NCBI RefSeq assembly: GCF_037042905.1
Contig: NC_087251.1
Coordinates: forward strand, 31,250,001-31,314,000
Direction of reading: 5' to 3'
Source: Lytechinus pictus
Taxonomy: Eukaryota
DNA length: 64,000 nucleotides
In this document: positions 2,784 to 58,251 of the stretch, piece after piece
Layout: the number at the start of each line of letters is the position of its first letter
Numbering within the stretch: the stretch's first letter is position 1
Made by a program: the position numbers and the translations under genes
Notes under the pieces: model-generated
Seen by the model: the letters and a program-made list of their open reading frames with translations, nothing else
What the model was told of the DNA's origin: nothing
The model's database searches: none

Positions 2784-2888
2784 CTTCAAACAAGACATTA
2801 GAAGATTAGCATCAGAGGGGGATGTTTCATAAAAGTATATACTTTCACTCACAAATGTCGTTTATAGCACTGTAGCTTATGACACATA

Positions 2889-3818
2889 CCGTATTTTCCG
2901 GTGTATTAACCGCACCTTTTTTCCCGCTTTATAATCTTAAAAAATCGGGTGCGGTTTATACAAAGAAACAACAAAATTTCATCAGAAAACTGACTGTGTT
3001 TCTTCAGTATTTTAGATTATTAAATGACCGAGAATTATTTAGAATATTTAATGTATAATTATATGTTGGTTACTGAAAATAGAGAGTATATTTTGCAGAA
3101 TTTTCTTTTAAAATCTTCTTTGTAAAGGTTGTTTTATATTATTTATTTAATTACTATCAATTTAATAATGTTTTCCTAAAAATAACCTGATCGTTTTGTG
3201 ATGAAAACTTTTTTTTCCAGCTAAAATTGCATGGAAAATGCGCTTCAATAGGCATGTAATCGTAATCGATCGTAATCGTAATCGGTTATTAAAAAAGGCA
3301 ATAAATAATGTCCTTAATTCTTTATTTCTCTCTGTTTTCTCTCAATATTTAAAAAAAAAATCCCCTTTTTATACCATAATTTTGATATTCGAAAATGCCA
3401 TTTTATGGTCTCCTTTTCGTTAAAAAAACCCTGGCTGCCTTGTAATGAAAACTTATTTTTTTACACCTAAAAAATGCATGGAAAATGCTTTACAATAGGC
3501 ATCTAATCGTAATCGATCGTAATCGTAATTGGTTAGAAAACAGGCAATAAATAATGTCCTCTATTCTTCGTTTTTTTTACCTCAGTTTCTCTCAACATTT
3601 TTTTTTCTTTTTCCGTCTTTAGACTATACGTTTGATATACAATACTGCCATTTCATGGTCTTTTTTTTCTTTATTCTACAAAGAAATAGTTTATATTTGA
3701 AAAATAAAGTTAAAGAATAAAGTAACCATTTTTTAAAATACAAAAATTAGTAATATATGTTTTGGTCTTTTAATTAGTTGGTAGTGAAAATACCCCAAAT
3801 GCCAACATCTCAATGTGC

Positions 3819-3855
<37 letters not shown>

Positions 3856-3915
3856 GCTCCCGATTTTGGGGGTGCGGTTAATACACGGCCGCGGTTTATA
3901 TACCGAAAAATACGG
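2889..3915. mobile_element. Non-autonomous Tc1/mariner-superfamily element (Tc2/pogo-like termini)
   Basis: TA|CCGTATTTTCCGGTGTATTAACCGC ... GCGGTTTATATACCGAAAAATACGG|TA. TA TSD and an internal duplication of about 250 bp. Confidence 0.85.
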
Positions 3916-4454
3916 TAGTCGATGAAAATCACTGATATTTATTTCATGAAAGGCTCCCCAGTTGTGGTAGCAAAAGACATAAAAACTGGGTTCCATGACA
4001 TTTGCTCTGGCGACGATTACTCCGGTGAAAAATATGCACGTTAAGCAAAACATAAAATCTAACCTCTAGAACTAAATAAACCCTAAACTTTATCTTCACA
4101 TAATTCTGAACCTAAAACTCTATTACAATCCTAACTCTAACCCTATGCCACCCAAGATATTTAGACCGGAGCAAGTGTCGCAGGAGCAAATCAAATGTCA
4201 TGACACCAAAAACTGACCTTGGGCCCATTGAGGGAAGAGTTGCATTTAAATGCAAGTCAAAGAAATCAAGTGCAAGTCCCGAAAGCAAGTTTTTGAGTGG
4301 TTAAAAATCATGTTGCAACTCTTTCTGGAATGGGCCCCAGAGAATTAAAGTTGTCCAAAGATATTGTCCCTGTTAGAGGAGGGTGGTTGGATTCACTTCA
4401 CACTCGTGACATTTACCCTTACCCCCTTCCTCCACTTTACCGGATTCAGTGCAT

Positions 4455-6138
4455 CCTCCATCTATCTTCAACCCAACCCTCCATCCATCCTCAACCCAAC
4501 CCTCCATCCATCCTCAACCCAACCCTCCATCCATCCTCAACCCAACCCTCCATCCATCCTCAACCCAACCCTCCATCCATCCTCAACCCAACCCTCCATC
4601 CATCCTCAACCCAACCCTCCATCCATCCTCAACCCAACCCTCCATCCATCCTCAACCCAACCCTCCATCCATCCTCAACCCAACCCTCCATCCATCCTCA
4701 ACCCAACCCTCCATCCATCCTCAACCCAACCCTCCATCCATCCTCAACCCAACCCTCCATCCATCTTCAACCCAACCCTCCATCCATCCTCAACCCAACC
4801 CTCCATCCATCCTCAACCCAACCCTCCATCCATCTTCAACCCAACCCTCCATCCATCCTCAACCCAACCCTCCATCCATCCTCAACCCAACCCTCCATCC
4901 ATCCTCAACCCAACCCTCCATCCATCCTCAACCCAACCCTCCATCCATCCTCAACCCAACCCTCCATCCATCCTCAACCCAACCCTCCATCCATCCTCAA
5001 CCCAACCCTCCATCTATCTTCAACCCAACCCTCCATCCATCCTCAACCCAACCCTCCATCCATCCTCAACCCAACCCTCCATCCATCCTCAACCCAACCC
5101 TCCATCCATCCTCAACCCAACCCTCCATCCATCCTCAACCCAACCCTCCATCCATCTTCAACCCAACCCTCCATCCATCCTCAACCCAACCCTCCATCCA
5201 TCCTCAACCCAACCCTCCATCCATCCTCAACCCAACCCTCCATCCATCCTCAACCCAACCCTCCATCCATCCTCAACCCAACCCTCCATCCATCCTCAAC
5301 CCAACCCTCCATCCATCCTCAACCCAACCCTCCATCCATCCTCAACCCAACCCTCCATCCATCCTCAACCCAACCCTCCATCCATCCTCAACCCAACCCT
5401 CCATCCATCCTCAACCCAACCCTCCATCCATCCTCAACCCAACCCTCCATCCATCCTCAACCCAACCCTCCATCCATCCTCAACCCAACCCTCCATCTAT
5501 CTTCAACCCAACCCTCCATCCATCCTCAACCCAACCCTCCATCCATCCTCAACCCAACCCTCCATCCATCCTCAACCCAACCCTCCATCCATCCTCAACC
5601 CAACCCTCCATCCATCCTCAACCCAACCCTCCATCCATCCTCAACCCAACCCTCCATCCATCCTCAACCCAACCCTCCATCTATCTTCAACCCAACCCTC
5701 CATCCATCCTCAACCCAACCCTCCATCCATCCTCAACCCAACCCTCCATCCATCCTCAACCCAACCCTCCATCCATCCTCAACCCAACCCTCCATCCATC
5801 CTCAACCCAACCCTCCATCCATCCTCAACCCAACCCTCCATCCATCCTCAACCCAACCCTCCATCCATCCTCAACCCAACCCTCCATCCATCCTCAACCC
5901 AACCCTCCATCCATCCTCAACCCAACCCTCCATCCATCCTCAACCCAACCCTCCATCCATCCTCAACCCAACCCTCCATCCATCCTCAACCCAACCCTCC
6001 ATCCATCCTCAACCCAACCCTCCATCCATCCTCAACCCAACCCTCCATCTATCTTCAACCCAACCCTCCATCCATCCTCAACCCAACCCTCCATCCATCC
6101 TCAACCCAACCCTCCATCCATCCTCAACCCAACCCTCC
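4455..6138. repeat. 23-bp minisatellite (CCATCCATCCTCAACCCAACCCT)n, about 73 units, in phosphorylase intron 4
   Basis: Strict 23-nt period, no G on the + strand, only two recurrent C>T variant units. Confidence 0.98.
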
Positions 6139-6483
6139 TACCATCATACTGTCCATCTGACACAATTAAAAAAAAATAACTGAACAACTCTTAACATGAA
6201 TGTTAATAAGTTTACAATATATACTGGTAATCAAATACTTAATTCATACTTAGGGTATGAAATAGATTTGCTTTTTGATAAAGTACATCAAAAACTACAA
6301 AGTAATTTCATCTGCCAACTAATGTTTCTGTGACAACAGAAATATACAGTACATGTACAAATGTGCATCCAATCACTTTCACTCAAAGCGAGAAAATCAA
6401 TCATACAAAATATCTGATAGTGATATACATGTAGAGTAGCATCTCTAAAGAATGTATAAAAAATATTAACATTAAAAATTTAC

Positions 6484-6587: not shown

Positions 6588-7030
6588 CTGAAAGAAAAAA
6601 AAAGCATATACTCAAATCATTGGAATACTTTCTCTTTTTTTTTTTAACCATGAAGACAAAAAAATAATATCTAAAGAAGATGGTAATTTGGTATGGACCC
6701 AGAGTAAATTGTACAAATATATTTTTTTACATCAGTAGAGTATTTCATCAATATTTCTGACAACTTGTCAGGCTTTTTTCATGAAACACTCTAGGGGGTG
6801 GTGTTTCACAAAGAGTTATTAAAGTGTGACTAATGGGGTGTTGCAAGAAACTTGCGATCAATAGCAAGTCAATTTTTGGTCCCTAAATCAATCGTATGTC
6901 TTGCAATTCAATTCAATTGCAAATTAGTGATTGATTGATAATTTGCTCCTTGAAACAAGAAGTTTAATCTGATTTGCTACAGCTAAGGTTGACCTATCAG
7001 TTGTAAATTTGCAACTGAATATTTGCAATT

Positions 7031-7781
7031 CTCGCTACCCCAAATAGGAACAAAAATCTCATAATGCGCGAGACGAGATAATTTTCACTCCGTCGGGTCG
7101 TCATCACCACTTCCGGTTCAGAGTCATGCATGCTCGCGCGAGGTTCGCGATACTGAGTTTTCCGCCACGCTGAAATCGATGCCAATCAGCGTAATATGTA
7201 CAGATTATAATACTTTTTATTTAATTTGGTCAGTTTTGATTCCATTTGAATTATAAATAAAATTAGAAAATATATTTCACGTGAAAATAATTTTTATTCA
7301 TGTTTTTATTTGGTAATAAAAAAATAAAACAAAAAATGAATATCTTAAAATTTTGCATTTAGCGACCCGCCTGACATCACGATCGTATTCGACTAGACGC
7401 TAAATATATACACTATGTACAGCATTCATTGCGTTCAATTTTTCGTCGACCACAAAATGGATAAAAAATCAGTTTCGGAACTTAAAAAAATCTTAACTGA
7501 CAGAGGAATACCGTGCAATGGAAAGCGTCGGGCAGAATTAGTGACTTTAGCAGAAAAGGCCGTTAAACTGTATCGTGAAAGAGAGGGTTGTGATCATGAA
7601 CTTTCCAAGCGAAAGCGAAGTTGTGTTGTTGTGGACGACGGCACTGTTGGTCTGAATGGCAAAACAGTGCATTGGACTTCCGAACAGGAAGTTGTAATAC
7701 CGAAAAGCTATCCCATTATGCAATGCGCGTTACAGGGATTTTTTCCCGGATCTCGGCGAAACCGCTATTTGGGGTAGCGAC
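7031..7781 (+). mobile_element. Unclassified 751-bp TIR element with AATT TSD carrying a SAP-domain-like ORF
   Basis: AATT|CTCGCTACCCCAAATAG ... CTATTTGGGGTAGCGAC|AATT, CpG-rich interior. Confidence 0.8.
7457..7777 (+). pseudogene. Truncated element-encoded ORF with an N-terminal SAP-like domain (MDKKSVSELKKILTDRGIPCNGKRRAELVTLA)
   Basis: Fits the SAP pattern V.ELK..L..RG+...G.+.EL+. The stop falls inside the right TIR, suggesting internal deletion. Confidence 0.65.
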
Positions 7782-9865
7782 AATTGATCGCAAATATTTT
7801 CTTGCAACACCCCGTTAGAGTCAGACTATGCAATGCGCAATCAATATGCAGAACTTGTGTGTCCTCTTGGCATGATCTTTTATACCACACGCAACTAGGC
7901 ATTTAAGAGTGACTCATACTTAACTTAAGTGTGACCCATACTTACTTAACTGTAAGTCATACTTAACTCTTTGTGAAATACCCCACAGAACACCTTTTTT
8001 TGGTAACATGGGTCCATTTCTTTTGCCGATAATACACACTTTAAGCTTGTACAATTGTCTTTAAATCAAAATCAGCTTTAATGACTATTACAGATGAAGC
8101 GACTGAAAACTACAGCGGTACTTTATTTTTATACATGCACAATATGTTTTATTATTTTTTTGTTCAACATGTCTGGTGCATGTCATATGTATTTGAAATA
8201 AGAATAATTTAAAAAAATGCATTGAACATTACACAATTTCCCTTAAACAATGTTGATTATGATCTTATTACAATACCACAGCCGATCACTTATGTTTATT
8301 ACCCTACAATATGAAATGCACTGATGTAGTTTACAAAATATTGTTGAAGAATGTAAATCCACTGTAATGTTATTACTGTACATGCACCTTATTCATAATT
8401 ACAGTATCATAATCAAATAACTTTGACATTTCATATTCAAGCAGACTTCATGTACTGTAGTTGAAACTCTCAATTTCTCTCTTAAATTTCTATAAAATAA
8501 TGTACACACAATACAGGTATATATTAAACATGATTTTTTTTTAAACAGAAAATCAGTTATCATCTTGTACTATTTAACAACAAGAAACTCTGTTTCTTTT
8601 TTGTTGTACATGAAAATCCAGCATGAACATAATTTCTCTACAGGGTAGTTGTCAATAAATGGCGAACCCATTTTAATCACTCCTGCAGAAATGGATACAT
8701 GTGTGTGCCAAGACATCATTGACCTTTTCAAGTGAGAAACTTGACCCGACCATGGATCCTGTTTAGCTCACTTCTTAGACTAGTCCAAATGCCAAAATGC
8801 AGTGTTTATATCATTTGACCAACAGACACTTCAAATGTTGATTTTATATTGGAGTAGCAGGAAATAACATCAACTTGTCTTTTCCAAGTGAAATCCCCCC
8901 CCCCCAAGAAAAAAATATTGTGAACTGATTCATATCCAGGTTCCTTACGGCATGGTGAGTGGAGTGGATTCTGGATTGGCATTTTGATCAGTACAGTATA
9001 CACGGGTTTAGCACGTGCATAATGGTGTCATGCCCTTGCCCTTGTCATAATGTCATGTCATAATGCTTAAAAATGTAAACTAGGCCTTAATGGGGAAAAA
9101 ATATCCTGAATGCCCTTATCGAGCAATGGTCCCGATCTTTGTTTAAATTGTAGCTGAAGTTTCAATTAATACATGTAGATAGATAACAAGTGAATATACC
9201 CAAATAAATTCTTTTTTAACATATAAGTAAATGTTTCTTGTAAGAACCAAAAAAAAAAAGGATATACATGGGACATAAAACCTGCTCTTTGCTTTTTCTC
9301 AGGTCATGTATCACCTTCAAACTTTGAAATATCACTCACTCATGTTCATGAGCCTTTGCTTTAATAATAGGAAAGTGACACCAGTTGGAGTGTAAACGGG
9401 GTGATAAGTATACAGGGTGATAAGTATACATGCCTACATAATTGAGACATTTGCAGGCATCGAGCATCAAGTTACTGAAATTAAAGGACCAGCAAACGTT
9501 TGCAGCACAGGAATCTATGTACACTACAGGCTATATAAAATGTATCCAACCTGACATTTAAAAAAATATGCAAAATAATTATATAATTCATTTACACTAC
9601 ACTATGTCATTGAAGCAAAATTCTGTAAATGGAAGAAGGAAGTGAACAGCAAGTCAGTGGAAATATGAGTAAATTATATGTGTAAAAAAAACATTAAAAT
9701 GTCATGAATTTTGAAAATTTGTTAATCAAAACATTTTAGATTTTCTAATAACTAAAAATGGAGTAAGCATATTAGTTATGGCTTAAAGTTAAAGGGGTAC
9801 CCTAGGTTGAAAATAATATGATTTGATCAGATAAAGAAAAATCAGACAAACATTACACTTAAAAT

Positions 9866-10780
9866 TTGATGAACATTGGACAAGGAATAAAGTTTTGAGA
9901 TGTTTTGAACATTTGCATTGAGAGAAGATACATTCATGAATATTTAATGAGCAAATTGATGATGTCATATCCCCACTTTAAGTCCAAGAATTATAAAACT
10001 TGGACTGACAAATGATCGAATGCATTATATATTCATTGCTGCAACTTATTTTATTATAAGGGAGACATAGGCCTATACATTGTAAGTCTCATACACAAAT
10101 AGTATGAAAAAACTTGATGAACATTGGACAAGGAATAACAAAGTTTTTAAGATATTTTGAAGATTTGCATTATTTCGGTGAAACAATGAGATACATGTAC
10201 ATTCCTAAATATTTAATGAGCAAATGGATGATGTCATATCCCCACTATGGCCTGAATTCACAAAGGTGGTTTTGAAAACCAACGGTTGAGTCCATGGTTT
10301 ATGCAGATTTCCTGTATAAATTACGCTTAATTTAGCGCGTATCGGGCGCGTGTATAAAAATGTCAAATTCTGATGCGTGCTTTTGTCAGTGCGCCAAATT
10401 GACGCCTGTTACCATGGTTAGGTACGCTATTTTATTCATGAGTCCACTGTAAAAGAGTGAACTCATGAATAAAATAGCGTATCTAACCATGGTAACAGGC
10501 GTCAATTTGGCGCACTGTGACAAAAGCGCGCATCAGAATTTGACATTTTTATACACGCGCCAGATACGCGCTAAATTAAGCGCAATTTATACAGGAAATC
10601 TGCATAAACCATGGACTCAACCGTGGGTTTTCAAAACCACCTTTGTGAATTCGAGCCTTTAAGTCCAAGAATGATAAAACTTGGATTGACAAATGATCGA
10701 ATGCATATAGATATTCATTGCTGCAACTTATTTCATTATAAGGGAAACATATATGTCTCATACACAAATAGTATGAAAAT
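9866..10780. repeat. Tandem duplication of about 250 bp inside a TTAAAGG-type MITE; second copy interrupted by a foldback element
   Basis: TGATGAACATTGGACAAGGAATAA at about 9867 and 10115. Colinear similarity resumes at 10658. Confidence 0.85.
10249..10657. mobile_element. 409-bp foldback MITE (arms of about 200 bp, 7-nt loop), 3-bp TSD, PIF/Harbinger-like
   Basis: GGCCTGAATTCACAAAGGTGG...CCACCTTTGTGAATTCGAGCC. Flanks TAT/TTT versus a single TTT in the empty paralogous site (about 9977). Confidence 0.92.
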
Positions 10781-11423
10781 ATGAAGTAGTTCATGTCATA
10801 ACGTAAGAAAAGGGGAAAGTGGGGCATGACATCATCAGTTCACCTATTAAATATTCAAGATGACGTGCATATACATGCAACCGTCTTCACAAATATTGTC
10901 AAACTTTCAAATCTAAAAACTTTGTTATAATTTCTTACTAGATTTTGATGAAATTTTCAGCATTTTGCTTGGTGAATTTTACTATATTTATTAACTATTT
11001 AGAAATAATTATCCCGGGGGGGATGGGGGGATATATCCCCCCCACTTTTCGAGGAGGGGGGGATGGCCTGTACAAACATCCCCCTCACTTTTTACGAAAG
11101 AAATGAAAAAAAAATCACAAGAGATAATTGTTTTATTGGTGAAAAATCCTTCCTAAAATACCGCTTAACAAATAAAACAATATTATTGAATTATAAAATG
11201 CAAATAAAGAGCCAGTTCACCATTTCCAAACGAAATACTTATGTCCTTATTATATCATTGAAGAGAAACCCCCGTTTCTTCCAATTCATCAATGTTGGGG
11301 TCTTTGGGAAGGGATTAAGATGGAATGTCAAATTTTTTTAAATGTAATCTCTAATAAAACCATTAAACCATCATGGGGTAAAAAAGATAATAATATTGGA
11401 GGGGTATTTGCCATATGGACATA

Positions 11424-12962: not shown

Positions 12963-14139
12963 AACAAGTGGAACGCCTCTGGCAGTCTCGCCTGCATTAC
13001 GCAATTTAATATAGCAGCAGTGCTAACTTTGAAAACTACTATAAAATAATCATTCACAAAAACACCATTCATATAATGACATAATACCACGTTCATTGAC
13101 CATAAATGACATTTGAACGGAGACTTAAGACTGTCAACTACACCCATGTCCACATTTCATTCACTCTATCCATAAACTTTCAAAGTTATGATGGCACTTC
13201 AACAATTACCCCAACATGGCCTAAGTTTATTGACCTTAACTGACCTTTGACTTGGTTTTGTGACCTGAAACTCACAGGGGATGTTCAGTGATGCTTGATT
13301 ACTCTTATATCCCAAGTTTTATGAACTAGATCCATAAACTTTCAGAGTTAGGACGGTAATTCAACAAATACCCCCAACACGGCCAAAGTTAATTGACCTT
13401 TAATGACCTTTGACCATGGTCATGTGACCTGAAACTCGCACAGAATATTCAGTGGTACTTGATTAACCTAATGTCCAAGTTTCATGAACTAAATCCATAA
13501 ATTTTCAAAGTTATGATGGTAATTCAACAAATACCCCCAACTTGGCCAAAGTTCATTGACCCTAAATGACCTTTGACCTTGGTCATATGACCTGAAACTC
13601 AGGCAGGATGTTCACTAATACTTGATTAACCTTATGTCCAAGTTTCATGGACTAGATCCATAAATTTTCAAAGTTATGATAGTAATTCAACAAATACCCC
13701 CAACTTGACCAAAGTTCATTGACCCTAAATGACCTTTGACCTTGGTCATGTGACCTGAAACTCAGGCAGGATGTTCAGTAATACTTGATTAACCTTATGC
13801 ACAAGTTTCATGAACTAGGTCCATATACTTTCTAAGTTATGATGTCATTTCAAAATCTTAACCTTCGGTTAAGATTTTGAAAATAATTTTCCCAACATGG
13901 TCTAAGTTCATTGACCCTAAATGACCTTTGACCTTGGTCATGTGACCTGAAACTCAGGCAGGATGTTCAGTAATACTTGATTAACATTATGTCCAAGTTT
14001 CATGAACTAGGTCCATATACTTTCTAAGTTATGATGTCATTTCAAAACCTTAACCTTAGGTTAAGATTTGATGTTGACGCCGCCGCCGCCGTCGGAAAAG
14101 CGGCGCCTATAGTCTCGCTCTGCTATGCAGGCGAGACAA
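12963..14139 (-). mobile_element. Helentron-associated (HINE/DINE-1-like) non-autonomous element, copy 1
   Basis: Subterminal IRs GTCTCGCCTGCAT/ATGCAGGCGAGAC, extra internal IR, (GCC)n microsatellite, about five 163-bp core repeats, A/T-run insertion site without a clear TSD. Confidence 0.8.
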
Positions 14140-14427: not shown

Positions 14428-14506
14428 CTGCCAGTCGACCCAAACCACCGTTTCCAAGACCAGCATCCTCCTCCAGCTCTTCCAACTCCTCAATATTCAG
14501 ACCAAG
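14428..14506 (-). CDS. PYG: Glycogen phosphorylase exon 3 (LGLNIEELEELEEDAGLGNGGLGRLA)
   Basis: tag acceptor, G|GTTAGT donor, 79 nt, EDAGLGNGGLGRLAA signature. Not in the ORF track; read manually. Confidence 0.97.
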
Positions 14507-15332
14507 CTATTACATAAGAAAGAACAAATGAAAAAATGATGAAATTAAAAATAATTTATTCATTTAAAAGTTAACTGTGAATAATAGATGCATAACTGAC
14601 TGACTTCATACAAAGGTAAGTTTATTCACGACAGGATGGCCAATGACAGTTGAGATGGCATTTCCGATGGGGTCCTTCAAATAAACATAAAAATTAAGAG
14701 TTAATACTGAAATGGATTGAAATGAAATCAACCATTTTTGGTGACTTAATTCTGATACTGCTGTATTAAAAGGATAGGAAGAATAACACATTATGTAAAA
14801 ATAAAAATGAAAATGAAATAGCATAATAATTTTTTTTATTCTTTACAGTTTTGTACATTATACAAGAAATTCATAAGAGTCTTTCAAATACTACAGGCAA
14901 TTTTTCTTGGGATTAATTTTAAAGATTTTTTTCATAGCTGACTGACTACAATCAGAGAGCTTTTCATTATGTTTATTCTTTTCCCTGCTTTATTAAAGTA
15001 CATACATGTATATGACTATATCTCATATATAATGAAAAGAAATTTAAGTCCATGGTTTCCAACATTATCCAATCATATACAAGGAAACATGAAATGTAAA
15101 GAATATAAAAGGCATGTTATGTTTATTCATATTTTCGTATCATATTTCCAGATTGATCAGCATGCTCTTTTTTTCCAACATGGAAGTACAAAATGTAAAT
15201 GTACAGTACAGTCACAATTGGAAATGTAGATGTCCGATAATAGATCTGTCTCAAATGTAATGTCATCTACATACACATATCAAACCCACTAAAAATGCAT
15301 GCACTCATACTGTATGAAATCTGAATACTTAA

Positions 15333-18384: not shown

Positions 18385-19219
18385 CTGAAAAGAGAAGGAA
18401 AAACTTGCTTTTTAGTATTAAGGCCTTTATTTGTACAACGAACAAAATTGACATTTTCATGAATTATAAATATATGTACACAGTTAATCATAGAGTATTT
18501 TACATTATTTTCTCAACGTTGTCTACATGTACATGACAATAGCAAAGCCACAATATGTTGTATTAATACTTTTAATCCCAACTGAGATTAATAAATATGG
18601 AGAGAATGATCTAATAGAATGTGGCCAATATTCTCAAAAGATTATTGTACCATGGTACAAAACCATGGATTATGCAGATTTTTTGTATTATTGTACTTCC
18701 CTTTAAGCGCCCTCTGCATTTAATTGGATTTTTATTTTTGTCCGCGATGAAATTCAAGTTTAATTATATACAAAATCTGCACAGTCCATAGTTTTTTTAA
18801 AAACCTCTTTGGAGAATACACGCCTGTACTTGTATGTTTTAAATCATCATTTAAAATAAAAGCCTATAAGATTAGCAGCAACCTGAATGGTAAAGTAATA
18901 AGCAAACCCCTTCATTATTATCACATACATGTATACCGGTAATATCACTCAATTTTTAACTTTTGTCAACTAAAGCAGAAATTGCACTGTGTTCTTACAG
19001 AAAGGCATCTATGTAACTGTTCAGTTGAAAAGTTGGGTACAATATGTAAATTAATGATTAAAGTATTCTTCAGAAAACTTTTTGCTTTTTTAAATGTATC
19101 ATCTCTTTATTATAGGCCTATTGATTGATATTCACAATACAGATTACAACTATCACGCTCATTCTAATAAATTGGTTCCATGATGTTGGTTCCAGCGACA
19201 ATTGATGCGATGGAAAACA

Positions 19220-19799
19220 GGGAATGAAACCTTTGGAAAAAGTGGGCTTGTGTGAAACGGAAAATTCAAAGAATATAAAGAGAAAAGAAAGTTTGAGAAA
19301 AATTGGACAAATAATGAAAAAGATATGAGCTCTTATATATTGCGTTCACTAATGCTACACGTATGGATATCCTCCCATTAGCAATGCGACCAATATGTGT
19401 GATGTCACATATGAACAACTTTCCCTTTGATGGACAATAAAATACCCCAAAAATGTCTCTTTTTGCTTTCTTATAGTGATACAAATTCTTCATGGATATT
19501 GTATTCCTTGAAAATCTGTATTACATGCCCTCCTATAGGAAGAATACATGATCTACTGATAAATGTGATAAAAGAGGCGGTTTAAGTGAAATATATACAA
19601 AAGTAATGGGAAAGTTGTTCAAATGTGACGTCACACACCTTGGTCGCATTCCCAATACATGTAGTAGGATTTACATTACAATATAATGATCTAAACTTCA
19701 AATGCTCATAACCTTTCTTATCATTTATTCAATTTTCTAAAACTTTCGTTAATCTGTTTCTGTTTTCGTACGAGCTAACTTATTCCAATTTTCCTTTAA
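19220..19799 (-). mobile_element. Degenerate copy of the 63025-63608 TTAA MITE, opposite orientation
   Basis: Central region is the reverse complement of about 63230-63420; long eroded TIRs. Confidence 0.8.
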
Positions 19800-21631: not shown

Positions 21632-22561
21632 ATAAACAGTCAGTCTGCAGTTCCTACTCCCTCTGCCATATAATGAGCAAATGAGCAAGATTTATCCAAG
21701 TCCTCTCATGGCTGAATTCATATCCCTGCAAAATCTTGTGAATTCAAAGTGAGACTTTAACCACTTTCTCCTCAAGTAAAATTGATTATTTTGATACCAT
21801 ACATGTGTAGTAAAGAGTAAATGCTACTCTTTTATATTGGTAATTTCTTTTGAATAAAATATTTTGATAAATAAGCGAATTTCAGGCCTGAAAAGATGCC
21901 TTTTCTTTCTTTAATTTCTCTTGCAAATTGTGTTAAACTTTTTGATTTGGGCACAAATGCTATCTATATCATCAGAAAGCTCAAACTCTAATTTCTCTTG
22001 CAAATTGTGTAAAACTTTTTGTTTTGGGCACAAATACTATTTATATCATCAGAAAGCTCAAACTCAATACTTTCTTACAATGTCACTCTTGATATCTGGC
22101 ACCTTTTAGATGGGTCAGCAGCCAACTTTTCCCATCAAGAAACAAGATAAGATTTTTGAAAATTCTGAGTAGCAAGTAATCCAAAGTTCTGATTGGCTGG
22201 ATAATGTTTCAGAACAACAGCCGCAGGTAATTTGAAGAGATTACCACATGGTGATCATTTCAATCATCATTTCGAATATGAATATCACTTGGATTAAAGA
22301 AGCTACTTTTTGTGGACCTGCCGACTGACTGATAAAATTTAAATCTGTCAAAGCAAAATCCACTGTGATGTGAAGTTGGTTTTGTGACAGTTTGGCAAAA
22401 TTCCACCAAAGAGTGTCATGTACATGTTCATGTGCATTAATGTATTTAAAAAAAAATTATATCAAATGTGAGCAGCACCCCATTTGTCATGATAAAAAAA
22501 GTTCACATTATTTTACATGTATTTCAAGGTTTAAGATTAATATAAGTCATATTCCATAAGC

Positions 22562-22860: not shown

Positions 22861-23372
22861 ACATAGCAATATCATTATTAATCATCAAAATAACAAATTT
22901 GTGGAGTTTATAGTAGCACACAACATTGACATGGTATATAGAAGAGTAAGCATAAAAAATCCAAACTTTGACAATTTATAACTAGTTTTTTTTTAAAGAC
23001 TTTTTTAGAGTGGACTTTCGTCAATTTTTTTTTCAATTTCGATTAAATGTAGGCCTACATGTAATGTCAGGATTAATTACCCTTTAAAGTCAACCACAAG
23101 ATTATGACAGTGGTTTAAATTAAAAGTAGAGAACTCCACCCTAAAGTTGATATATGAATAAAGGACAATTAAAAAAGAGCATAGTTCACCAAAAATTTCG
23201 TCAAAATCAAATGTATAATACGGGTATATATATATTTTCATTTATATCTACACACATACACATGTAATTACTATGCACATCCTGGATCCATGTTTCATAC
23301 TTGTAGTACTGTAATGGTATCATTACATATACAGCAACTTTCATGGTAAGAGTGCTCAGCAGTACTTACATG

Positions 23373-26102
23373 TAGTGCTGCCACCAAACGGATAACATTT
23401 TTCATTTTTCTGGTTCGGGTATCCGTGGACACTGATTCACCACTTTCCTGTCACAAAAACTCATTGAATTTAGTAAGACTCACCAACAAAATTTATAAGT
23501 TTTAATCGCCAATATAATCACCAATATCAATTAATCTTCTTCGGTAATATATTCCCGCCGAAAACCATCGTTTTTATATCAGTTTTGAAACATGACCTTA
23601 TATCAGTTTTGGAGCATGACCGTCTGTGAATGGAGTAAAGTTCCGTTCTGACAACGATGGCGATTTTACTATGGTGTCGCTTAAGATTGTTTTCTTTCCC
23701 GTCTTATGTTTTGATGATTTCAAATGCGTAACTCATCGTATATTTTCTTACCTCGACTTTCAATGCGAGTGAAGAATGAAGATAATTTGAAACCATTTGA
23801 GCGTCAAATAAATGTTGATCCGGTTACTCGGGTGTGTCATGTTGTTTCTTGTAATTTATTCATCAAATGCAAAACGAATTCTACTTTTTCTCACACCAAT
23901 GAAGATGATTATTTTTGAAACTATGAAAAGTTGAAAACGTCGAATGAATGTTGATTGCGTGTGTCATGTTGTTTCTTGTAATTTATTCATCAAATGTTAA
24001 TGTGAAATCAACTTTAACGATTAAATCTTAACCATGTAAAACTTCCAGTTGTGTAGCATTTTAAAGATTGACGTCATATCTTTTTGACATTTATTTTTTC
24101 TTTATATTTTCATTTTCGCTATTAGGATTTTATTAGATTATTTAAAAAAAACATATCTTTCCAACAGAGGCGGAGGTGAAAAGGGGCATGTGTCATGGCC
24201 ACCTTCATTTTCCAGTTGTTCCAGATTGATACTTTAAACTAGTCCTAACTTTAAACTAAAATTAAGTTCACCGTAAAAATGCTGTTTTACATTTGAAGCA
24301 AAGCTGTTTGGGCCCGTCATGTATTTTTTTAAATACATTTTTTAAACATCTTGTTTGAACAGTTTAAACGATAGTTGTTAGAATGAAGGGATTAAACATT
24401 TAAAGTTTAAACAGCGTCATTTTCGCTATTAGGATTTTATTTGATTATTTAAAAAATCATATCTTTCCAACAGAGGCGGAGGTGAAAAGGGGCATGTGTC
24501 ATGGCTACCTTCATTTTCCAGTTATTCCAGATTGATACTTTCAACTAAAATTACGTTCACCGTAAATATGCTGTTTTACGTTTGAAGCAAAGCTGTTTGG
24601 GCCCGTCATGTATTTTTAAACAATTGTTTGAACTTTTTAAAACATTTTTTGAACAGTTTAAACGATAGTTGTTTAATAGAATGAAGGGATTAAATCATTA
24701 AAGTAGATTAAACGTTTAAACAGCGTTATTTTAAAGTTAAAAGTGTGGAGGAAAACTTGAGAACGTATTTCCCTCCTATCAAAATATCCTTGACTGGCAA
24801 GAAGTTGACCTAGAAATAAATTTTTAAATGCCTGTTAATCGAGGCATCTGTTCAGCTCACCAACTCAATTTCATTTCTACTTCTGTTTTAATGTGTACTG
24901 TCAATTATTATGATACTGATTTACTGGTGATTATGATAATGGCGGACTTTGTGATGAATGATAATGAGAGTGAAACTGAAATGAATGACGATGATGATGA
25001 GTGATATCTAGTGAAAATGATTTTAAATGATTATCAAGATTGGTGAAGATGATAGCGATGAATGATGATGAGAATTATGAAAGAATGATAATTGTCAATT
25101 GAAAATCTCTTTCATGAATTAATATTTAATATATAAATTACAAAACACACATTTTCCTTTATTTCAGTTTAAATGGCATATGCACTATAAATTTTGATAT
25201 CCATCATCACGTAAACAACAATACTTAAAAGGCGGTATCGTGCCAGAAAGGTTTATGATGTGCGCCCGCCGAGTATGTGGTCGGTTGTGAATCAACGTGT
25301 TTTGCAGTAAAACTTACTGGTGATGAATGTAAGTGATTAGTTACTGTTAATGTGATTTAATCTTGTCTTGAATCTTTGTTAGAAGTGTGATTATGTTTCA
25401 GAAGTTGAGAAATGAGAAGCTTGGCTATAATTTGGGGAATGGGGAGAAACCCGACATGAAAATGAAAATATTCCAAGTACGATCCCATTTGAAGGTTTAG
25501 CGAGTGTAATGTGACCAAATATATATCGGACGATTCACTCCAGACACGTTCAGACAGGACAGCACATGCGTGAGCTGAATGATGTAGGCCTGTCTTGTTT
25601 TAGACTTTTAGTAATAGTAGACTCGCACTTACACTCGCCTCGGTCAAATTCATTGCATCTTATTTCGTTTGATCGGAACTAAAAAATAAACACACATACT
25701 ATCCCAACCATTAAAATGGGATCGTAACTAGGCCCGACTTGTATAACTCAAGTAATAGTCATTTACTAATAGCTCACACAGTCATACGATCTACATTTGT
25801 AGCCGTAGCCTCACGCTAACTCACATTAGTCAAATCCGATTGCAAAACAGATTCAACCCAAAATATTCAGCTTCTCGTAATTTCGTGGTTTTCAGAAATA
25901 TTTTAATTAGCGCACGCTGACTCTCGCCATCATCGGATAGGTTCAAAACTCAAATATAACTGAAAATCTTATATATAACTCAAATAAGTGCAAATGGATA
26001 TTATTTTTTATATTTCAGGATAAAATTTCGGATACCCCTCCGCCGTCCGGTTTTCAGTGTCGGGTATCCGAATATTGAAATATCCGTTTCAAGTCAGGCC
26101 TA
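23373..26102. mobile_element. 2.7-kb hAT-like non-autonomous element
   Basis: Degenerate TIRs TAGTGCTGCCACCAAACGGATA / TATCCGTTTCAAGTCAGGCCTA, subterminal CGGGTATCCG repeats, CTCAGCAG at 23355-23362 and 26103-26110 (TSD), internal tandem duplication of about 308 bp (24110-24720). Confidence 0.7.
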
Positions 26103-27408
26103 CTCAGCAGCTAATCACTAAAAAGTTTCCAAACTTTCCATGGTATATAATGGCAAAGTTCCCATATAACCAAAGTACTGTACATGTAAATGTACCTGAT
26201 TTGCAATTAGTACGAACATTTCAATTCAATTTGATTTGGATCCATGGACCCATGTTTCCAAAGGTAAAGTCCAGTTGAGATCATGATAATAGTTGCATCT
26301 AGCATAAATAAAAATTCCAACTAAACCTGTTTCTACATGTAGGTTTAAAAAAAAAAAAAAAAAAAAAAAAAAGTTGGAGTCAATACTGTACATGTACATG
26401 TACATGTATATTGAGGCTATTGGCCAAATCATACAATCTATATCTTCAGAATTTTTTTTTTATCCCACTATAACAAATCTGGTATCAAACATAGACCATA
26501 ATTCTTTTTTTTTTTTTAATGTTTAAGTATTTGTTAATGTGATTTTCTTTTATTGTTTACGCACAATTCCTCACCAAGGTCTTTCCATATTTGATTTTTG
26601 GGTTTAATTTAGATAAATGGAACAAGTACATGTATTACTGATAAGATGTTAAGTACTGTAATCTTATTTTTCATAAAACAATGAACAAGATGATAAAAAA
26701 TTACATTAATATTCACAACATTGTTGTTGGGATAACAGAAATATTTTTAGATAAAGAAGATATTTATATTACAACAATATCCATATTTTTAGGGATTGAA
26801 TTTTCCAGGTGTAAAGGTAAATGGACTAGGGTATCAAAAGTCTGCAGATGCACTACCATAGTCAAATGATAATAGGCCTAATTAACACTTTGATTGTGGG
26901 CATCAATGAAAACATGATACAACACGATACAACAAACACAAAAGTATCTAGAAAGAGACAGATTAGCATGATGCAACATTCTTTTTTCAAGTCCAACCTT
27001 CATTTTCCTCTATCAATCTTTTTAATAATTCACTTTGAAATGCTCGAAGTATAGTTGAGAGCATTACACATGGACACTACGTCGGCCGAGAATCTTGTAC
27101 TAGCACAATTAGCTATGCGTGCGCATCAATTCTCTCCATATTTACCTGCACGTACATACGTCATCACGATCGAGTCAAGGTCATGTTATTGTGTTAACAT
27201 GTGGAAACTGCAAACATGGGAACCTTCTGGTGAGAAAATTTCGAACTTTCCCCTTTTCTATTTGTTCTTTTTTTAAGGCAATTGCGTACATTTCGAGTAT
27301 AAGCTTATGAATTGGAAATATTATATGTTTTTCCAAAAATTATTGTGGCAAAGGATTTCCTATGGAAATCCATCTTTGTTTTGATGTCTCTGTGACGTAG
27401 ACTATGTA

Positions 27409-30400
27409 CAGTGCGTTCAAAAAAACCTATACACTTTTGAAATGGCTGCCAAATGAAAAATATATCACTTTGGGGGAATACACTTACATATATGAAAGCC
27501 AATAAAGTCAACTTTCAAATTACACCAAAAAGTTGGAAAACTATTCATGCTTGAGCGAGCACTGCCAACTGAAACAAAGGGTTACAAGGGTATGAAAATT
27601 ATGATGGGCCGGAATAAGCCATCCAATTTCTGTCAGTTTTTGAGAGGCAAATGGAACTTGGAAATTTAAGGGTGTTGTGATTAATTAATGATCAACCGTG
27701 AACAGTTTTGGTTGTTTAAGCAAGTTTCATAAATTATTAAATTGAACTTTAATGCATGAGTGAACACAAATTACACATTTTGTGCAGCATTTTAACTTTA
27801 TCATGTGGATCTCAGCAATGTGTTCATGGGAGTCGAGTGAAAAGGGGATGAAATAGGACTTAAGTGGGAGAAGAAGGTTGATGGAATAAGGGTCAACAGA
27901 ACATTTAGCCCCCCCCCCCTCCCTCTCTCCCCTCCTGTTGAGTGACTGATTGCTATTGTCATGTACGCATGAAGTCCAGAGCAGAATATTGATTTAATGA
28001 TAAATTCCGAATTGAGGCATCAACTTTTTCCTCAATCATTTAATCAACAATTTATCAATCAATCAACTATTTCGATTTGCAATGTGGTCAATCAAACATT
28101 CAGTTTTTCAATAAATTATTTCATATATCATCATAATCAGTCAATTTCTTGGTAATTCATTCAATAAAACAAAATGACCATCAGCCACCAGTCAATTGGC
28201 AGTTAAGCTTTGAATAAGCTACAATCCAGGAAGTGAGGGAGAGAGAGAGCCTGGAAAATGGAGGTGGAGAGGGGATACATATGAATTTTAATTTGTATAA
28301 GGACTAAAAGAAGAGGAATGCCCAAGTCATACCATATCTTGCCCTCTTGCTTGTACAGGTACCATCACATTACTCTGACTCTCACGAACACACTGCTGAG
28401 GTCCACAAGATGAATATGCTAAACTAAAATTACAATTCCTGTTCACTCATGCACTAAATTTCAATTTCAATTTTCAAATAAATTTGCCTAAGAAACCAAA
28501 ACTTATCTCACTCATTAATTTAGCATTTCACCTTAGCTTTGCAAGTTCCAAATGACTAACCATTCAAAAAACTGTAAGGCTTATTCCTTCCCAGCCTAGC
28601 CGAGCTTAGTCTCTCAGGAGGAGAGAAGTGGGCGGGAGGGGGGTAGAGATGGAAGGAGGGGTTGCTCAATGTTCTGTTGACCTTAATCCAATCAACGTTC
28701 TTAACTTTATACTTAAGTCCTATCTTACCCCCTATTCTTCTGACTCTCATGAACACATTGTTGAGATCCACATGATAAAGTCAAAATGCTGCACTAAAAA
28801 TTGCAATTCATGATCGCTCATGCATTAAGTTTCAATTTAATAACGCATGAAATTTTCTCAAACAACAAACTGATCACAAGTGATGATTAATTCATCACAA
28901 AACCTTCAACTTTGCAAGTTCCAAACAAAACAACCTGAAAGAAATTGAAAGGATAATTCCAGCCCAGCAGGCCTCTACAAAAAAATTTTTCGGGCAAGTG
29001 ATGAAAAAATTTCCTTGCCCGATAGAAAAAACTGCTTGCCCTATTTGTTTTATTTTATTTTTTTATTGTGACGGCACTACTCTTATCTTTACGGTCATAC
29101 AAAATAGCAACAATTGAGAATCATGTACAGTATAAAAGAACACACATTTAAAGTTTATTTTCAGCAACGTAGGCCTGAGTCATTACGTTTATTTTGATTT
29201 ATTTTTCGCTATTTAGAAATGGGGCTTAATTTAAGGTTTAAAAAAAACCTTCACCAAAAGTTGCTAAAATTTCATATTTTGCATCTTTAAATCCACGAAA
29301 TGGTTATCTGTTTGCCATATTTCCTTAGAATTGTTTTGATTTAGTTGGAAACTATAAAGAAAGCCAGTGAAAAATTTTCAGCTCTTTATTGACTCTGAAA
29401 AAGATTGTTTTATGATGTAAAACAAATATATCTAAAGTGGAGTGGCTAAAATTTCACATTTTGCATCTTTAAATCCATGAAATGGTCATTTATTTTCCAT
29501 ATTTCCGTGAATTTTTTAAATAAGTTGGAAACTATCAAGAAAATTAAGAATATTCACCTCTCTCTTGTCTTTTCTTCATCATTTTATGATGTTACACTCG
29601 GTCAATATTTTGTTATTGTAGTCCCGCATGTAGACTTTCATGGGTTTTTTTTCACGGAGTTGCAGCATTGATCGTTGACCGTATCGTTTGATCGTTTTAC
29701 ACTTGGTCAACATGTAAGTCTACATGTGGGACCACAATAATAAAAAACATTTACCGAGTGTAGAAAGAGAGTCATGAAAGAGCTGAATATTCTTCATTTT
29801 TTCAGTAGTTTCCAACTACATCAAAACAATTTCAAGGTAATATGGAAAATAGATGGCCATTTTATGGATTTTTGCAAAATGTGAAATTTTAGCCAATTTT
29901 TTTGAGTTTTTTGGGGTTTTTTTGGTGTGCATCGGCAAATTGCTCAAGTAGCGCATGCGCAGTCATTGCACACATAGAACGTAAGATGCGATCGATGGCA
30001 CGGTTTTTCGAACAAGGTATCTGGTGATAAATAATTGGTAATTGGCGCTGATTTTACATCAGTTTCCACTTTTTTTTTTTACTGGTTTGACATAATCTGA
30101 GATAAAGTTGTGATTATCCAAAAGATATTGAAATTTAGAGGGTCTACTGATTTTTTTTTCCAAAACAACCAATTGCCCGATCAATTGACTTTGAGAAATG
30201 CTTGCCCGCACGTCATTTTCACTTGCCCTGGGCAAGCGGGTTTGTCGCGCCCTGCGGCCCAGCCTAATTTTCATACCCTTTGTTTCAGTGGGCAGTGCTC
30301 GCTTAAGCATGAAAAGTTCCAATATTTTTGTGTCAATTGAAAGTCCCCAAAAGTGATATATTTTTTATTTGGCAGCCATTTCAAAAGAGAATAGTTTTTT

Positions 30401-30412
30401 TTTGACGCACTG
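27409..30412. mobile_element. Tc1/mariner-like element with very long (about 500-bp) inverted arms; right arm interrupted
   Basis: TA|CAGTGCGTTCAAAAAAA ... TTTTTTTGACGCACTG|TA. About 27640-27900 is the reverse complement of about 28690-28960. Confidence 0.85.
28968..30254. mobile_element. hAT-like element inserted into the Tc1-like arm
   Basis: TIRs CAGGCCTCTACAAA / TTTGTCGCGCCCTG, 8-bp TSD CAGCCCAG/CGGCCCAG (7/8), subterminal GGGCAAG motifs. Confidence 0.8.
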
Positions 30413-31445
30413 TAGATCTAGATGTCAAATTATATTTAAAAAGTTCATCATCACGGAGTCTTCTAGGCTAAGTGGAGCCTACACAAACCATCGCCCGAGG
30501 TACACTAGATCTAGACTAGGACCACCCATGGGTTCATCACATATCGCATGCGAAGGAATATCAAATGCACGCGACACATGCAACGCTTTCATTGGACTTT
30601 GCCCCATTAAAAGATTCTAACACTAAAATAAAAATTTCACATTGTGCTACAATACCAAACCATATCGATCCCTTTGCTGACTTCTCTTTCCATTTGGTTA
30701 AAAAAAAATGTATTTTTGTCTTGATTTTCATGTAGATGCCCTTAGATCAGTGACAAAATAATTTTTTCCCCTTAAGAGCGCGTGCGATTTATCTTCATAT
30801 CAAAGACACTACATAGAAAAGACTAGGCACAAAAACTATTTACACGTAAATCGATGCAAAGCGTTACGCGAAGTCGGCAAAGTGTCCAATCATTTTATTG
30901 TAAAGACTTTGGTGGAGTGTTCGTTGACAAACAAACGGTAGCACTGCTGGCTTCGTTCAAGGCACGTAGAATTTTCTATTCTTTTGTTTAATTTGTCATC
31001 GCTTTGAATGTTTTCCAAAAAATATATTCGTCAGCAAAAGTGATCTAAAAAGTATGTTTTTTAAGTTATTGCATTTCTTGGCATCTATATTTTATCAAAC
31101 AATCATGGGAATTTCGCATACAATGAATTTAGACTTTATCTAGTTATAAAATACTGACGAGCTGAATTAAGGTTGCGAATTGTATTAGCGCCACCAACGA
31201 CCTTCCTTTTATTTCCGTGGAAGAGACAGGCGAAGTCACTTTCCCAGCCGAGGTAAGCGATTTTGCTCTTTTTTATGTGATTTTTATATTTTAAAAATAT
31301 ATAAAAATTTAACGCCCATCACCTGAAAAAACCCTGGTGAGTAGCGGAATGAGATTCGGCTACCATTGTTCCCGTTATGAAGCAAATGTTAACCGACAAA
31401 TAAAATATCCACTGCGTAGACTCGTTCGTAGTGCGAGGTTAGAAT

Positions 31446-31979
31446 AGTATGGTAGGGGTTCCTAAAGCTGCGCGGGTCCTAAAGCTACGCACCACTCCAT
31501 TGGGCATGCAATTTCAATGGGAAAATAAATGCACACTCGAGCTCTGTGTGTGAAGCTGTGACTGCAGAGTGACGAACGATCCTATTCAATTTTTCTGCAG
31601 AGGCTGCAATAAATTCTTGAATGCAGAGAAAACCAGCAAATGTTTGGAATTTTTTATTTATGTTCACTTTAATTTCATATTTCCCTATAATAATACAAAC
31701 ATATTTTAGAAATTGAGGCACAGGAAATACTCTTTCTTTGCATGATAAATCGAGTGCGTAGCTTTAGGACCCTTCTACATCAGACGGCGAAATTAAGAGG
31801 TGTTCGGAAAACACGGTGGGATTTTCGTATTAGTGAATTCTGTGATATTTTCTTCTTGGTTAAGGATTATTAGAATATTAATTACAAATTAGTGAAAGAC
31901 AAATTGTTCAAATATTATAATTGGCATAGTTTTTATCGTTTAAAAACAAAGTGCGTAGCTTTAGGTCCCCCCATCACTA
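31446..31979. mobile_element. Probable MITE with repeated GGTCCTAAAGCTACGCAC motifs
   Basis: Motif occurs twice forward (31456-31491) and twice inverted (about 31754 and 31951); termini degenerate. Confidence 0.55.
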
Positions 31980-32288
31980 ACCTCGGCCTCGCAATACATG
32001 TGAGTGGACTAGGCCTAACTGTTAGATTCTATAGATCCATTTTCATTTTTTTATGAATGTCAAAACTCAAGTCAAACAAAAATAGGTCTTCTAATAAAAT
32101 ATTAATTTAAGATTAATTAATAAATTCAAGCATCAACGTAAATCTTAAATTAAAAATCTTAACCTAAAGTAAAAATTTAAAATTTAAATAGAAATACTCA
32201 AAAGTTAGTTATACTTATATGGTCCATTAGTAAGAGTTTAGGTTTAAAATTTTAGTATTTAGGCGAAATTAGGCCTACAGTACCATAC

Positions 32289-32525
32289 CTTTGGATCAGT
32301 TTCATAATAATACTGCTGAGTACGGATCCAACGGCCAACGAGATGATCACGGACCGAGTGGGCAAGGGCGATGTAGTAGTCACGTTGAGTAGCTACATTC
32401 CTGTCTTTCACCAAGGTGAAATGAAGATGCCGATTAAAACTCGCTTTGAAGTTTGCAACATCCTCAATACCGGGAATCCCACGCACACTAATCTGCTTCC
32501 TCTTCTCCTGGTCACTTTGAGCCAT
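32289..32525 (-). CDS. PYG: Glycogen phosphorylase, coding exon 1 ([16 protein letters not shown]...[14 protein letters not shown], 79 codons)
   Basis: ATG at 32525. RKQISVRG phosphorylase-kinase (Ser14) motif, [17 protein letters not shown] and RWIRTQQ motifs. Ends AAG|GTATGG, phase 0. Confidence 0.97.
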
Positions 32526-32559
32526 TCTGATGGTCAAGAGGTAGAAAAGAAATGTTCAA

Positions 32560-32790
32560 ATCGTCAGATTTCCGTATCGACTGCTCTTCCACTGTCTCTG
32601 GCAGCAAAACTCACGACTCGACTGACCTGGATCATCGATGCATGTACCGGAGCGGCGCGGCGCGGCGCGGAGGGCCGACCGGGGCCGCGGCGGGTGGATT
32701 TGCATCTCAGTCTACGTGTACGTGCAATTCAGGGTACCGCAATTCAGTCAGCTGGGATGGGCTGGCCTCGGAAAAACATGCACATCATCG
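32560..32790 (-). promoter_or_regulatory. GC/CpG-rich putative promoter and 5' UTR of the phosphorylase gene
   Basis: Sharp GC/CpG-rich patch (GCGGCGCGGCGCGGCGCGG, GC-box-like) just upstream of the ATG in AT-rich surroundings. TSS not determined. Confidence 0.55.
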
Positions 32791-32823
32791 AACGGATAGA
32801 GGGCGTTAACACTTTGTTGTTTG

Positions 32824-33278
32824 AAGGGGGAGTTCCTGAATAAAAGTTTGTTGTAAAAAAAATGTAAAAGAGAAAAGTTGTTAGAATTGTAAGTTTTGAT
32901 ATGTGACATCATATACGAGCAGCTACCCATATGTTATGTAATATAAAATGCATACATTTCATTTTTTTTATGTTTCGTGATGACTATATATTTTTATTTC
33001 AGAAAAGGTATGATTAATGTGATATATCTTAGAGATAATCTCCATGGTTGATACTGAAGGTACAATTAAGGTCTCTTTTTTTTATAAAGTTTTGTAGGGA
33101 ATGACATTTCATTGATTTTTTTTACTACAAAAAAATATGAGATGCTCGCATATGAAGTCACAAATCAAAAAATAAAATTATGATAATTTGTTTTATCTTT
33201 TATTTTCCTCTAGCCTTCTCCCATATTGTTTATTTTTCTGCTAGTTTTACAATAAACTTTTTGTCAGGGTGAACTTCC
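32824..33278. mobile_element. Degenerate AGGGAAGTTCACCC-family MITE just upstream of the phosphorylase promoter
   Basis: Eroded TIRs; related copies at about 45360-45830 and 60750-61228. Confidence 0.6.
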
Positions 33279-34053
33279 GATTGAACTGTTGACGCCGTCT
33301 ACCGTCTTTGACGCACATACTGTAAACATGTGGATACTAGACACCACCCCCCCAAAAAAAAGGATAATAAAAGTGAAATATCCTTGCATGGTCTGGGAAG
33401 TGGGAATGATATTAAAAATCCTGTTTATGTTAGGATCTACTAAACAATGTTCCTCTTCCGTTTTTAGCTCGTATTATTTTCTTTACATTTTATTCCTGTT
33501 TACTCTGGGGATATGCAGTCGCGGATCTGGGGAGGCCGGGGTTCAGGGGGCGCTGTAGTTGGCCAGCAAATAAATTAATATAAATCAAAATGAAAAAGTG
33601 AAAAGGGAGAAGGAGAAGAAAGGGAAGAGAAAGCCAAGGCAATTCTAATCAAACGAAAAGGGGTATATATAAAGGACAGAAGAAAGGAAGAAAGAGGCTT
33701 TGCCAACATGACCCTTATTCAACTTTTTTTCTTGACAGGTATAGTGCAAGTCCACGTCAGTCTATATGGGTGACCCCCCCGGAAACCTCTTTTAATTAAA
33801 CGACCTAATCCCCACGCTGATGTCAGTGAATGATATCTTCATAAAATGCCTAGTTCTTGTCGTGATCTTTAAACATTTCAGCTCGCATATTCCTTTACTG
33901 TCATACGCATTATTTTGTTCCAGGAAAATTTTGACAAGCAAGCAATAAAAAAAAAGGCCCTCACTTGCCATACATAACTTGTTCCAATTAAAACTATTTT
34001 GGCTGCCTCTCAAGGGGAAGGGGCACGGACCGGATGTGCCCCCACCCCTGGAT

Positions 34054-34087
34054 CACTGAACTAGAAATACGTATTTCTAGTTCAGTG
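34054..34087. repeat. Perfect 34-bp loopless palindrome
   Basis: CACTGAACTAGAAATAC|GTATTTCTAGTTCAGTG. Confidence 0.95.

Positions 34088-58220: not shown

Positions 58221-58251
<31 letters not shown>

Follow-up and report, generated by a model that had tools for sequence, protein, structure and literature searches.

Short words enriched at TA dinucleotides in a 64-kb animal genomic window: probable excision scars of Tc1/mariner-type transposons

When a cut-and-paste transposon excises, there is normally no trace that can be counted in an assembly, and excision rates are therefore hard to measure. The Tc1-family element Minos leaves a fixed six-base footprint at TA, in which four bases of one element end are kept. 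For Tc1/mariner elements in general, the accessible part of PMC8151067 describes transposases whose cut in the non-transferred strand falls a few bases within the element, after which end joining yields a footprint. Sleeping Beauty (SB) leaves TACAGTA/TACTGTA together with six shorter forms via NHEJ, according to the available text of 10.1101/659086. In C. elegans, 78% of the somatic Tc1 scars belong to the +4 class TATGTA/TACATA (excerpt of PMC12632400), and the accessible sections of PMC3520976, citing Eide & Anderson 1988, describe TACATGTA as rare among Tc1 footprints. The sequence-only reading of the DNA studied here had taken TA-CATG-TA for a standard Tc1 footprint, a view that these partial sources contradict. 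TACATGTA is also 'motif-1', the most abundant promoter motif of Phytophthora (PMC3520976 and PMC11134190, as far as their available text goes). In the accessible sections of PMC3520976 the authors weigh a footprint origin and dismiss it because the motif is abundant and conserved; a paralogue test of the motif was not found there. Judged by the titles in the partial texts matched, whole-word occurrences of TACATGTA concern oomycete and fungal gene regulation and those of TACAGTA/TACTGTA concern SB work only; TAGGCCTA does not occur as a whole word among the matches listed.

The window analysed here is one stretch of 64 kb of animal-like DNA (35% GC, CpG o/e 0.66). Its host gene is glycogen phosphorylase on the minus strand (137 to 32516, the left end lying beyond the window edge), for which tblastn placed seven coding exons: 32516-32289, 18387-18274, 6594-6481, 2786-2649, 2201-2094, 1278-1195 and 292-137. 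Exon 1 (32516-32289) matches muscle glycogen phosphorylase with an E value of 2.5e-38, and Pfam PF00343 was found in three further exons. A small candidate extra exon at approximately 14430-14510 (minus strand) was seen by eye and missed by tblastn, and a Pfam scan of 44-64 kb returned no gene. Within a phosphorylase intron, inverted repeats at 6831-7817 enclose a 126-aa open frame on the plus strand (7397-7774) with a SAP domain (PF02037, E 5.8e-7), which is probably a transposon remnant. An intronic minisatellite at 4455-6145 (23-bp unit, 73.5 copies, 98% identity) was masked for the Markov expectations given below. Two copies of one element, at 13146-14094 and 57403-58225, contain internal tandem units of 163/192 bp ending in (CGCCGY)n runs.

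Word counts obtained on the window show a strong excess of a few words that start and end with TA. TACATGTA occurs 27 times, whereas an order-2 Markov model with the minisatellite masked predicts 2.5, and 200 dinucleotide shuffles gave a mean of 1.6 with a maximum of 5. The by-eye estimate of more than 20 copies against a rough expectation of 2-3 was thus accurate, and TACAGTA/TACTGTA (TACWGTA), which had also been called frequent, are found 26 times against 9.1, a 2.9-fold excess. TAGGCCTA occurs 8 times in the window against 0.35 under the same order-2 model. Among the +7 words a clear rise is restricted to those whose third base agrees with a CAG end: TACAGTGTA/TACACTGTA yield 4 against 0.6, and TACAATGTA/TACATTGTA show no enrichment in the window (2 against 1.3). 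The +4 words TACATA/TATGTA have no excess in the window (73 against 73.9), their background being high. Both TACATGTA and TAGGCCTA are perfect palindromes. When all 16 palindromes of the form TA-xy-y'x'-TA are tested, only these two and the TATATATA microsatellite lie far above expectation, with weaker signals in the window for TACCGGTA (2 against 0.22) and TAGATCTA (3 against 0.64). By hand sum the excess amounts to about 52 words or roughly 0.5% of the window sequence. Read as scars, the words would come to roughly one per 0.5 kb of these introns.

Enriched words might also be substitution products, arising mainly where methylated gene bodies lose the CpGs of TACGCGTA/TACACGTA, supplemented by slippage. 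Motif density is negatively correlated with CpG o/e (Spearman -0.40, p=0.024, 2-kb bins), a related arm at 10192 holds a similar word at equal length, a tandem run at 26389 may be slippage, and in the listed metagenome loci introduced below two TACTGTA align to same-length variants with one mismatch. Decay should, however, lift the sibling words equally, and these have no excess in the window: TATGCATA is found 0 times against 2.9 expected, and TACACATA/TATGTGTA 6 times against 5.0. Moreover, CpG decay cannot yield TAGGCCTA, TACWGTA, the length differences between paralogues or the mixed chains. We consider an origin by substitution very improbable, and within the window it is largely refuted. 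CpG decay and a lack of enrichment were among the outcomes that the sequence-only reading had named as speaking against excision scars; with flat siblings and strongly enriched words, neither does so in the window. The words behave like insertions at TA, unlike substitution products.

The mixed chains are seen where neighbouring words have a TA in common. Among 67 motif words there are 9 such pairs against 0.87 expected, and since 7 of the 9 join different words, slippage does not account for them. The tandem run of TACATGTA noted earlier at about 26389-26408 was confirmed and is preceded by TACTG at 26384; the resulting chain of TACTGTA and three TACATGTA with shared TAs (26384-26408) may reflect serial hits or slippage of a 6-bp unit. 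A mixed chain of TAGGCCTA and TACATGTA around a common TA lies at 23050-23063, and others have word positions 6345, 16288, 20975, 26176 and 32270. TACATA is chained to TACATGTA in the same way at 12897, 15003 and 17948 (3 against 0.76 expected), which hints weakly at +4 scars hidden in the background.

To what extent the words are insertions can be judged from paralogues within the window. For every TA-N3-5-TA word (n=1481) we determined whether a site-spanning paralogue fits the word or plain TA. With a loose filter plain TA fits 8 of 8 motif words and 49 of 388 other words (24 ties). A strict gap-free filter gives 5 of 5 against 14 of 224 controls (Fisher p=2.3e-6), where the five include one ambiguous site (49758) and one motif class that was added post hoc, once its gap had appeared (TACACGTA); the motif list as a whole was drawn up with the enrichment already in view. 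Three words of the duplication at 9861-10779, discussed below, are absent from the strict set because of neighbouring gaps. Clean cases are TACACGTA at 19356-19363 (+6 compared to plain TA in two paralogous arms at 63.1 kb and 63.5 kb), TACAGTA at 37126-37132 (+5, paralogue at 43.6 kb) and TACTGTA at 54139-54145 (+5, opposite arm of the element that carries it). With TACATGTA itself, each of the three testable sites has a flaw. Its copy at 10192 is ambiguous. The copy at 19656-19663 had been described as interrupting a MITE arm; it does have six extra bases compared to three related arms, but these read TG/TT and lack the TA. The copy at 49758 was downgraded as an empty/filled pair, the paralogue reading TACAGGTA so that the gap can be placed elsewhere. 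Insertion at TA is therefore established for the class of words, less firmly for TACATGTA. At 23367, the terminus of a hAT-like element, neither a paralogue nor a second end of the element was found within the window. A hand count of gaps of 3-30 nt in the alignments of intronic repeats assigns 3 of 20 distinct gaps to the scar type. Such gaps are a notable minority of the small intronic gaps, and the count does not establish the earlier suggestion that excision is a major source of small intronic insertions.

Insertions of this kind need not involve a transposon: templated or snap-back synthesis during end joining at TA breaks could add short palindromes as well. The perfect palindromy of TACATGTA and TAGGCCTA would suit this explanation, as would the TACA that the paralogue already contains at 10192 and 49758, the rarity of the dominant +6 form among studied transposases and the fact that no GG-ended TA element was identified in the window (one GGT candidate exists in the listed metagenome loci). 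Templated insertions should follow the flank, yet strong enrichment is seen for only 2 of the 16 palindromes plus the TATATATA microsatellite. The extra bases at 10068, 19356, 37126 and 54139 do not copy the flank of the empty site, and those at 10068, 37126 and 54139 are missing from that site. We therefore regard break repair without a transposon as unlikely, though less so than substitution.

The locus that first drew attention is a duplication of about 250 bp in the phosphorylase intron with exons 18387-18274 and 6594-6481 on either side. It was confirmed as two plus-strand copies, 9861-10110 and 10109-10779, that mismatch at 16 of 237 aligned bases (6.8%). Copy 1 lies within a larger decayed inverted-repeat element (about 9789-11000), and copy 2 is interrupted by a nested MITE at 10249-10657. 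This MITE of 409 bp has GGC ends, is palindromic throughout and forms a near-perfect hairpin (96-97% complementary, 7-nt loop). It is flanked by a 3-bp target duplication (TAT/TTT against empty TTT) with the empty site present in copy 1, and was inserted later than the duplication event. Other local tandem duplications of 80-310 bp, at 3177-3667, 21909-22075 and 24110-24732, resemble the one at 9861-10779.

The two copies had been said to differ by insertions exactly at TA, and this stands for one of the two sites only. At 10068-10084 copy 1 reads TAGGCCTA-TACATTGTA, 13 bases more than copy 2, which has TATA at 10750-10753; a single optimal alignment places a clean 13-bp gap at this TATA. The insert parses as two adjacent scars, +GGCCTA (+6) and +CATTGTA (+7), if copy 2 is taken as the empty state; the second word (TACATTGTA) is not among the enriched ones. 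A third copy covering the site was sought and none was found, and a 20-base stretch of the duplicated element had 0 matches in metagenome contigs. The same layout recurs at 18926-18941, where TACATGTA and TACCGGTA abut, at a place without paralogue. The other site, TACATGTA at 10192-10199 in copy 2 with its counterpart TA at 9929 in copy 1, is not a clean insertion. Neither MAFFT nor four gap models opened a 6-nt gap at TA. The interval between shared anchors measures 12 nt in copy 1, 29 nt in copy 2 and 33 nt in the host element's opposite arm, where a similar word occupies this position. Copy 1 is thus net 17 nt shorter than copy 2, and since a deletion in copy 1 fits the anchor lengths at least as well, the site was rejected as a 6-nt insertion and as evidence. 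The duplication contributes paired empty and filled copies, and one of its two examples fails.

A distance of 170 bp separates the GGC-ended MITE from the TAGGCCTA within the duplication, which raises the question whether elements that have GGC ends and duplicate a 3-bp target (TWA) gave rise to TAGGCCTA. Such an origin seems highly improbable. The empty site of 10068 reads ACATATATG, without TTA/TAA, and T is not raised before TAGGCCTA, with 3 of 16 in the window and 49 of 310 against 89.9 expected in the listed metagenome loci. The MITE's own duplication is TTT-like; it is not TA-targeting, and is therefore not the source of TAGGCCTA.

More suitable candidate sources are TA-flanked inverted-repeat elements, of which four in the window were judged true, two of them with CA...TG ends. 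These two are an inverted-repeat element with CAG...CTG ends (27407-30414) and a MITE with CAC...GTG ends (29593-29762). The others have CCG...CGG ends (2887-3917) and, again a MITE, CGA...TCG ends (25478-25726). As a rule for the expected scar we placed the first two and last two bases of an element between two TAs. This rule predicts TACATGTA from both 27407-30414 and 29593-29762, whose CA...TG ends match its inner bases. Judging by its termini, 27407-30414 is the kind of element whose ends would yield CATG/CAG/CTG scars. For 2887-3917 the predicted +6 scar TACCGGTA is weakly represented (2 against 0.22), and for 25478-25726 the predicted +6 scar TACGCGTA occurs 0 times against 0.33, its forms with a single CpG decay 3 times against 0.83, which is again weak. 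No TA-flanked GG...CC element was found in the 64-kb window, and no transposase domain in 132 ORF pieces of 44-64 kb or 25 of 26.6-30.4 kb.

Taken together we think it likely that the words are end-joining scars of TA-targeting elements of the Tc1/mariner type, with two bases of each end kept. A cut-and-paste element, now gone from the scar site, would have inserted at TA and duplicated it; upon excision its transposase would cut two or three bases within each end, and the host would join the broken ends with no trimming. Joining of two 2-base stubs tip to tip would give TA+CA+TG+TA, the +6 word and presumably the main product here. Overlap or a 3-base stub could lead by a minor route to TACAGTA/TACTGTA (+5), and joining of a 3-base and a 2-base stub to TACAGTGTA/TACACTGTA (+7). 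Some of the +5 and +7 words may also have arisen by decay of +6 words. TAGGCCTA may be the equivalent +6 product of a second, putative family with GG...CC ends. Since a scar has two TAs, either could receive a further insertion, and mixed chains would arise in this way.

The flanks and the distribution of TACATGTA provide further information. T is depleted beside the word (4 of 54 against 17.6 expected, p=5e-4), as a target preference would give. At the symmetrised position -1 the counts are A24 C10 G16 T4 against 20.0/7.4/9.0/17.6, hence T is avoided and G raised. This favouring of G besides A is unlike ATATATAT, the palindromic AT-rich target preference of SB/ZB given in the available part of PMC7913693. 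Of the 27 copies, 22 lie inside the phosphorylase gene (p=7.5e-4 by TA count), and none in the 13.6 kb from 26628 to 40256, comprising the first coding exon and upstream sequence. That interval has a CpG o/e of 0.75-1.08 and dense nested repeats. The bias towards the gene could equally well reflect preferential insertion into transcribed or methylated DNA or the greater age of that DNA.

A concentration inside the gene is also what one might expect if TACATGTA were retained by selection as a transcription-factor site, either for an Irx-type homeodomain or along the lines of the Phytophthora proposal; the accessible sections of PMC3520976 treat TACATGTA as a Phytophthora binding site and cite it as the preferred Irx site. 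Against this, copies are located within decayed MITE arms, are absent from paralogues and are chained to unrelated words, and the word is missing at 26.6-40.2 kb around the first coding exon. Selection could retain some copies, yet it leaves their origin unexplained, and as an account of the words we give it hardly any credence.

The same words are also found in unrelated DNA. Metagenome contigs were scanned for a triple chain of TACATGTA/TAGGCCTA, which returned at least 120 loci; according to BLAST none of those listed resembles the window. An ORF of 250 aa is present in 5 of 55 listed loci of at least 2 kb, and with so few long ORFs the loci are mostly non-coding and presumably eukaryotic. 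Counts were made on 113 non-redundant loci (7 repeats of the same place dropped; 267 kb) with the match masked and, the loci having been chosen for carrying the words, they reflect existence and not prevalence. TAGGCCTA occurs 159 times outside the matched word against 3.1 expected (52-fold), TAGGCTA/TAGCCTA 99 times against 26.4, TAGGCCCTA/TAGGGCCTA 18 times against 1.3, and TACATGTA 45 times against 6.4. TATGCATA has no excess in these loci (3 against 6.4), and TACWGTA yields only 71 against 50.6. Chains outside the query number 17 against 8.4, only a 2-fold increase.

Where TAGGCCTA has a paralogue in the listed loci, all three cases are +6 insertions at TA. Outside the query, the rows comprise five clean empty-type cases (three TAGGCCTA, two TAGGCTA), one doubtful (L014, poor alignment) and four filled, against a background of 14 of 235. 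The filled rows include two same-length variants and one word common to two repeat copies. The Fisher test on these loci was left unused, because most filled rows (24 of 28) and one of the 7 empty rows were self-matches of the query or sites seen twice. A search for TA-flanked inverted repeats in 114 listed loci, a small sample of 277 kb, gave one candidate starting with GG: a 140-bp element in L052 (2380-2523) with GGT...ACC ends and internal TAACCC repeats. Deriving the third base of a GG-ended element from the +5/+7 series was tried and rejected, because a 1-base overlap or GG/CC slippage gives the same words.

Combining window and metagenome loci allows a wider but tentative reading, which we put forward as quite possible rather than probable. 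Tip-to-tip joining in the germline of several invertebrate-like genomes would leave a fixed barcode for each TA-targeting family, and word counts would then serve as a ledger of excisions. TAGGCCTA would mark an abundant undescribed family with GG(C/G)...(C/G)CC ends, and scars may account for some 'TACATGTA regulatory motifs' in the literature. In the window this ledger would show an excess of about 52 scars, while 4 TA-flanked elements are still resident. If the reading is true, fixed scars would allow excisions to be counted for each family and dated from the decay of the scars, they would expose the repair route used in the germline, and TAGGCCTA would point to a transposon family known by its scar alone. 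It would also be a warning that motif searches may return an enriched palindrome which is a scar and not a binding site.

How do these scars compare to described systems? With Minos they have a fixed +6 scar at TA in common, but the corresponding Minos word TACGAGTA/TACTCGTA is absent in the window (0 against 0.76). As with SB, the extra bases between the two TAs equal the terminal bases of the element, as far as the accessible text of 10.1101/659086 and PMC8151067 describes them; unlike SB, the main word here is +6, and TACATGTA is not among the eight footprints listed in the available part of 10.1101/659086. Footprints of SB moreover come from an assay, whereas those reported here come from a natural genome assembly. 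Phytophthora motif-1 is the same 8-letter word and likewise very abundant, but it is treated as a binding site in the accessible sections of PMC3520976, and paralogues show insertion-type differences in the present data. Among the literature matches listed (footprints, populations, superfamily termini and sea-urchin transposons, with few subscription papers covered) there is no report of fixed TA scars at genome scale, and the available part of the Repbase paper (PMC4455052) holds no list of element termini. With Tc1/Tc3, as described in the available portions of PMC12632400 and PMC3520976, they share a duplicated TA that encloses 2-base stubs from CA...TG ends. The usual +4 class of Tc1 is, however, not enriched here, and its rare +6 class dominates. 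The footprint mechanism is textbook; no printed account was found of its scale, of the predominance of +6 or of a GG class. The feature is real, and is best read as an unusual, high-density variant of the Tc1/mariner footprint that is dominated by +6 scars and accompanied by a second class.
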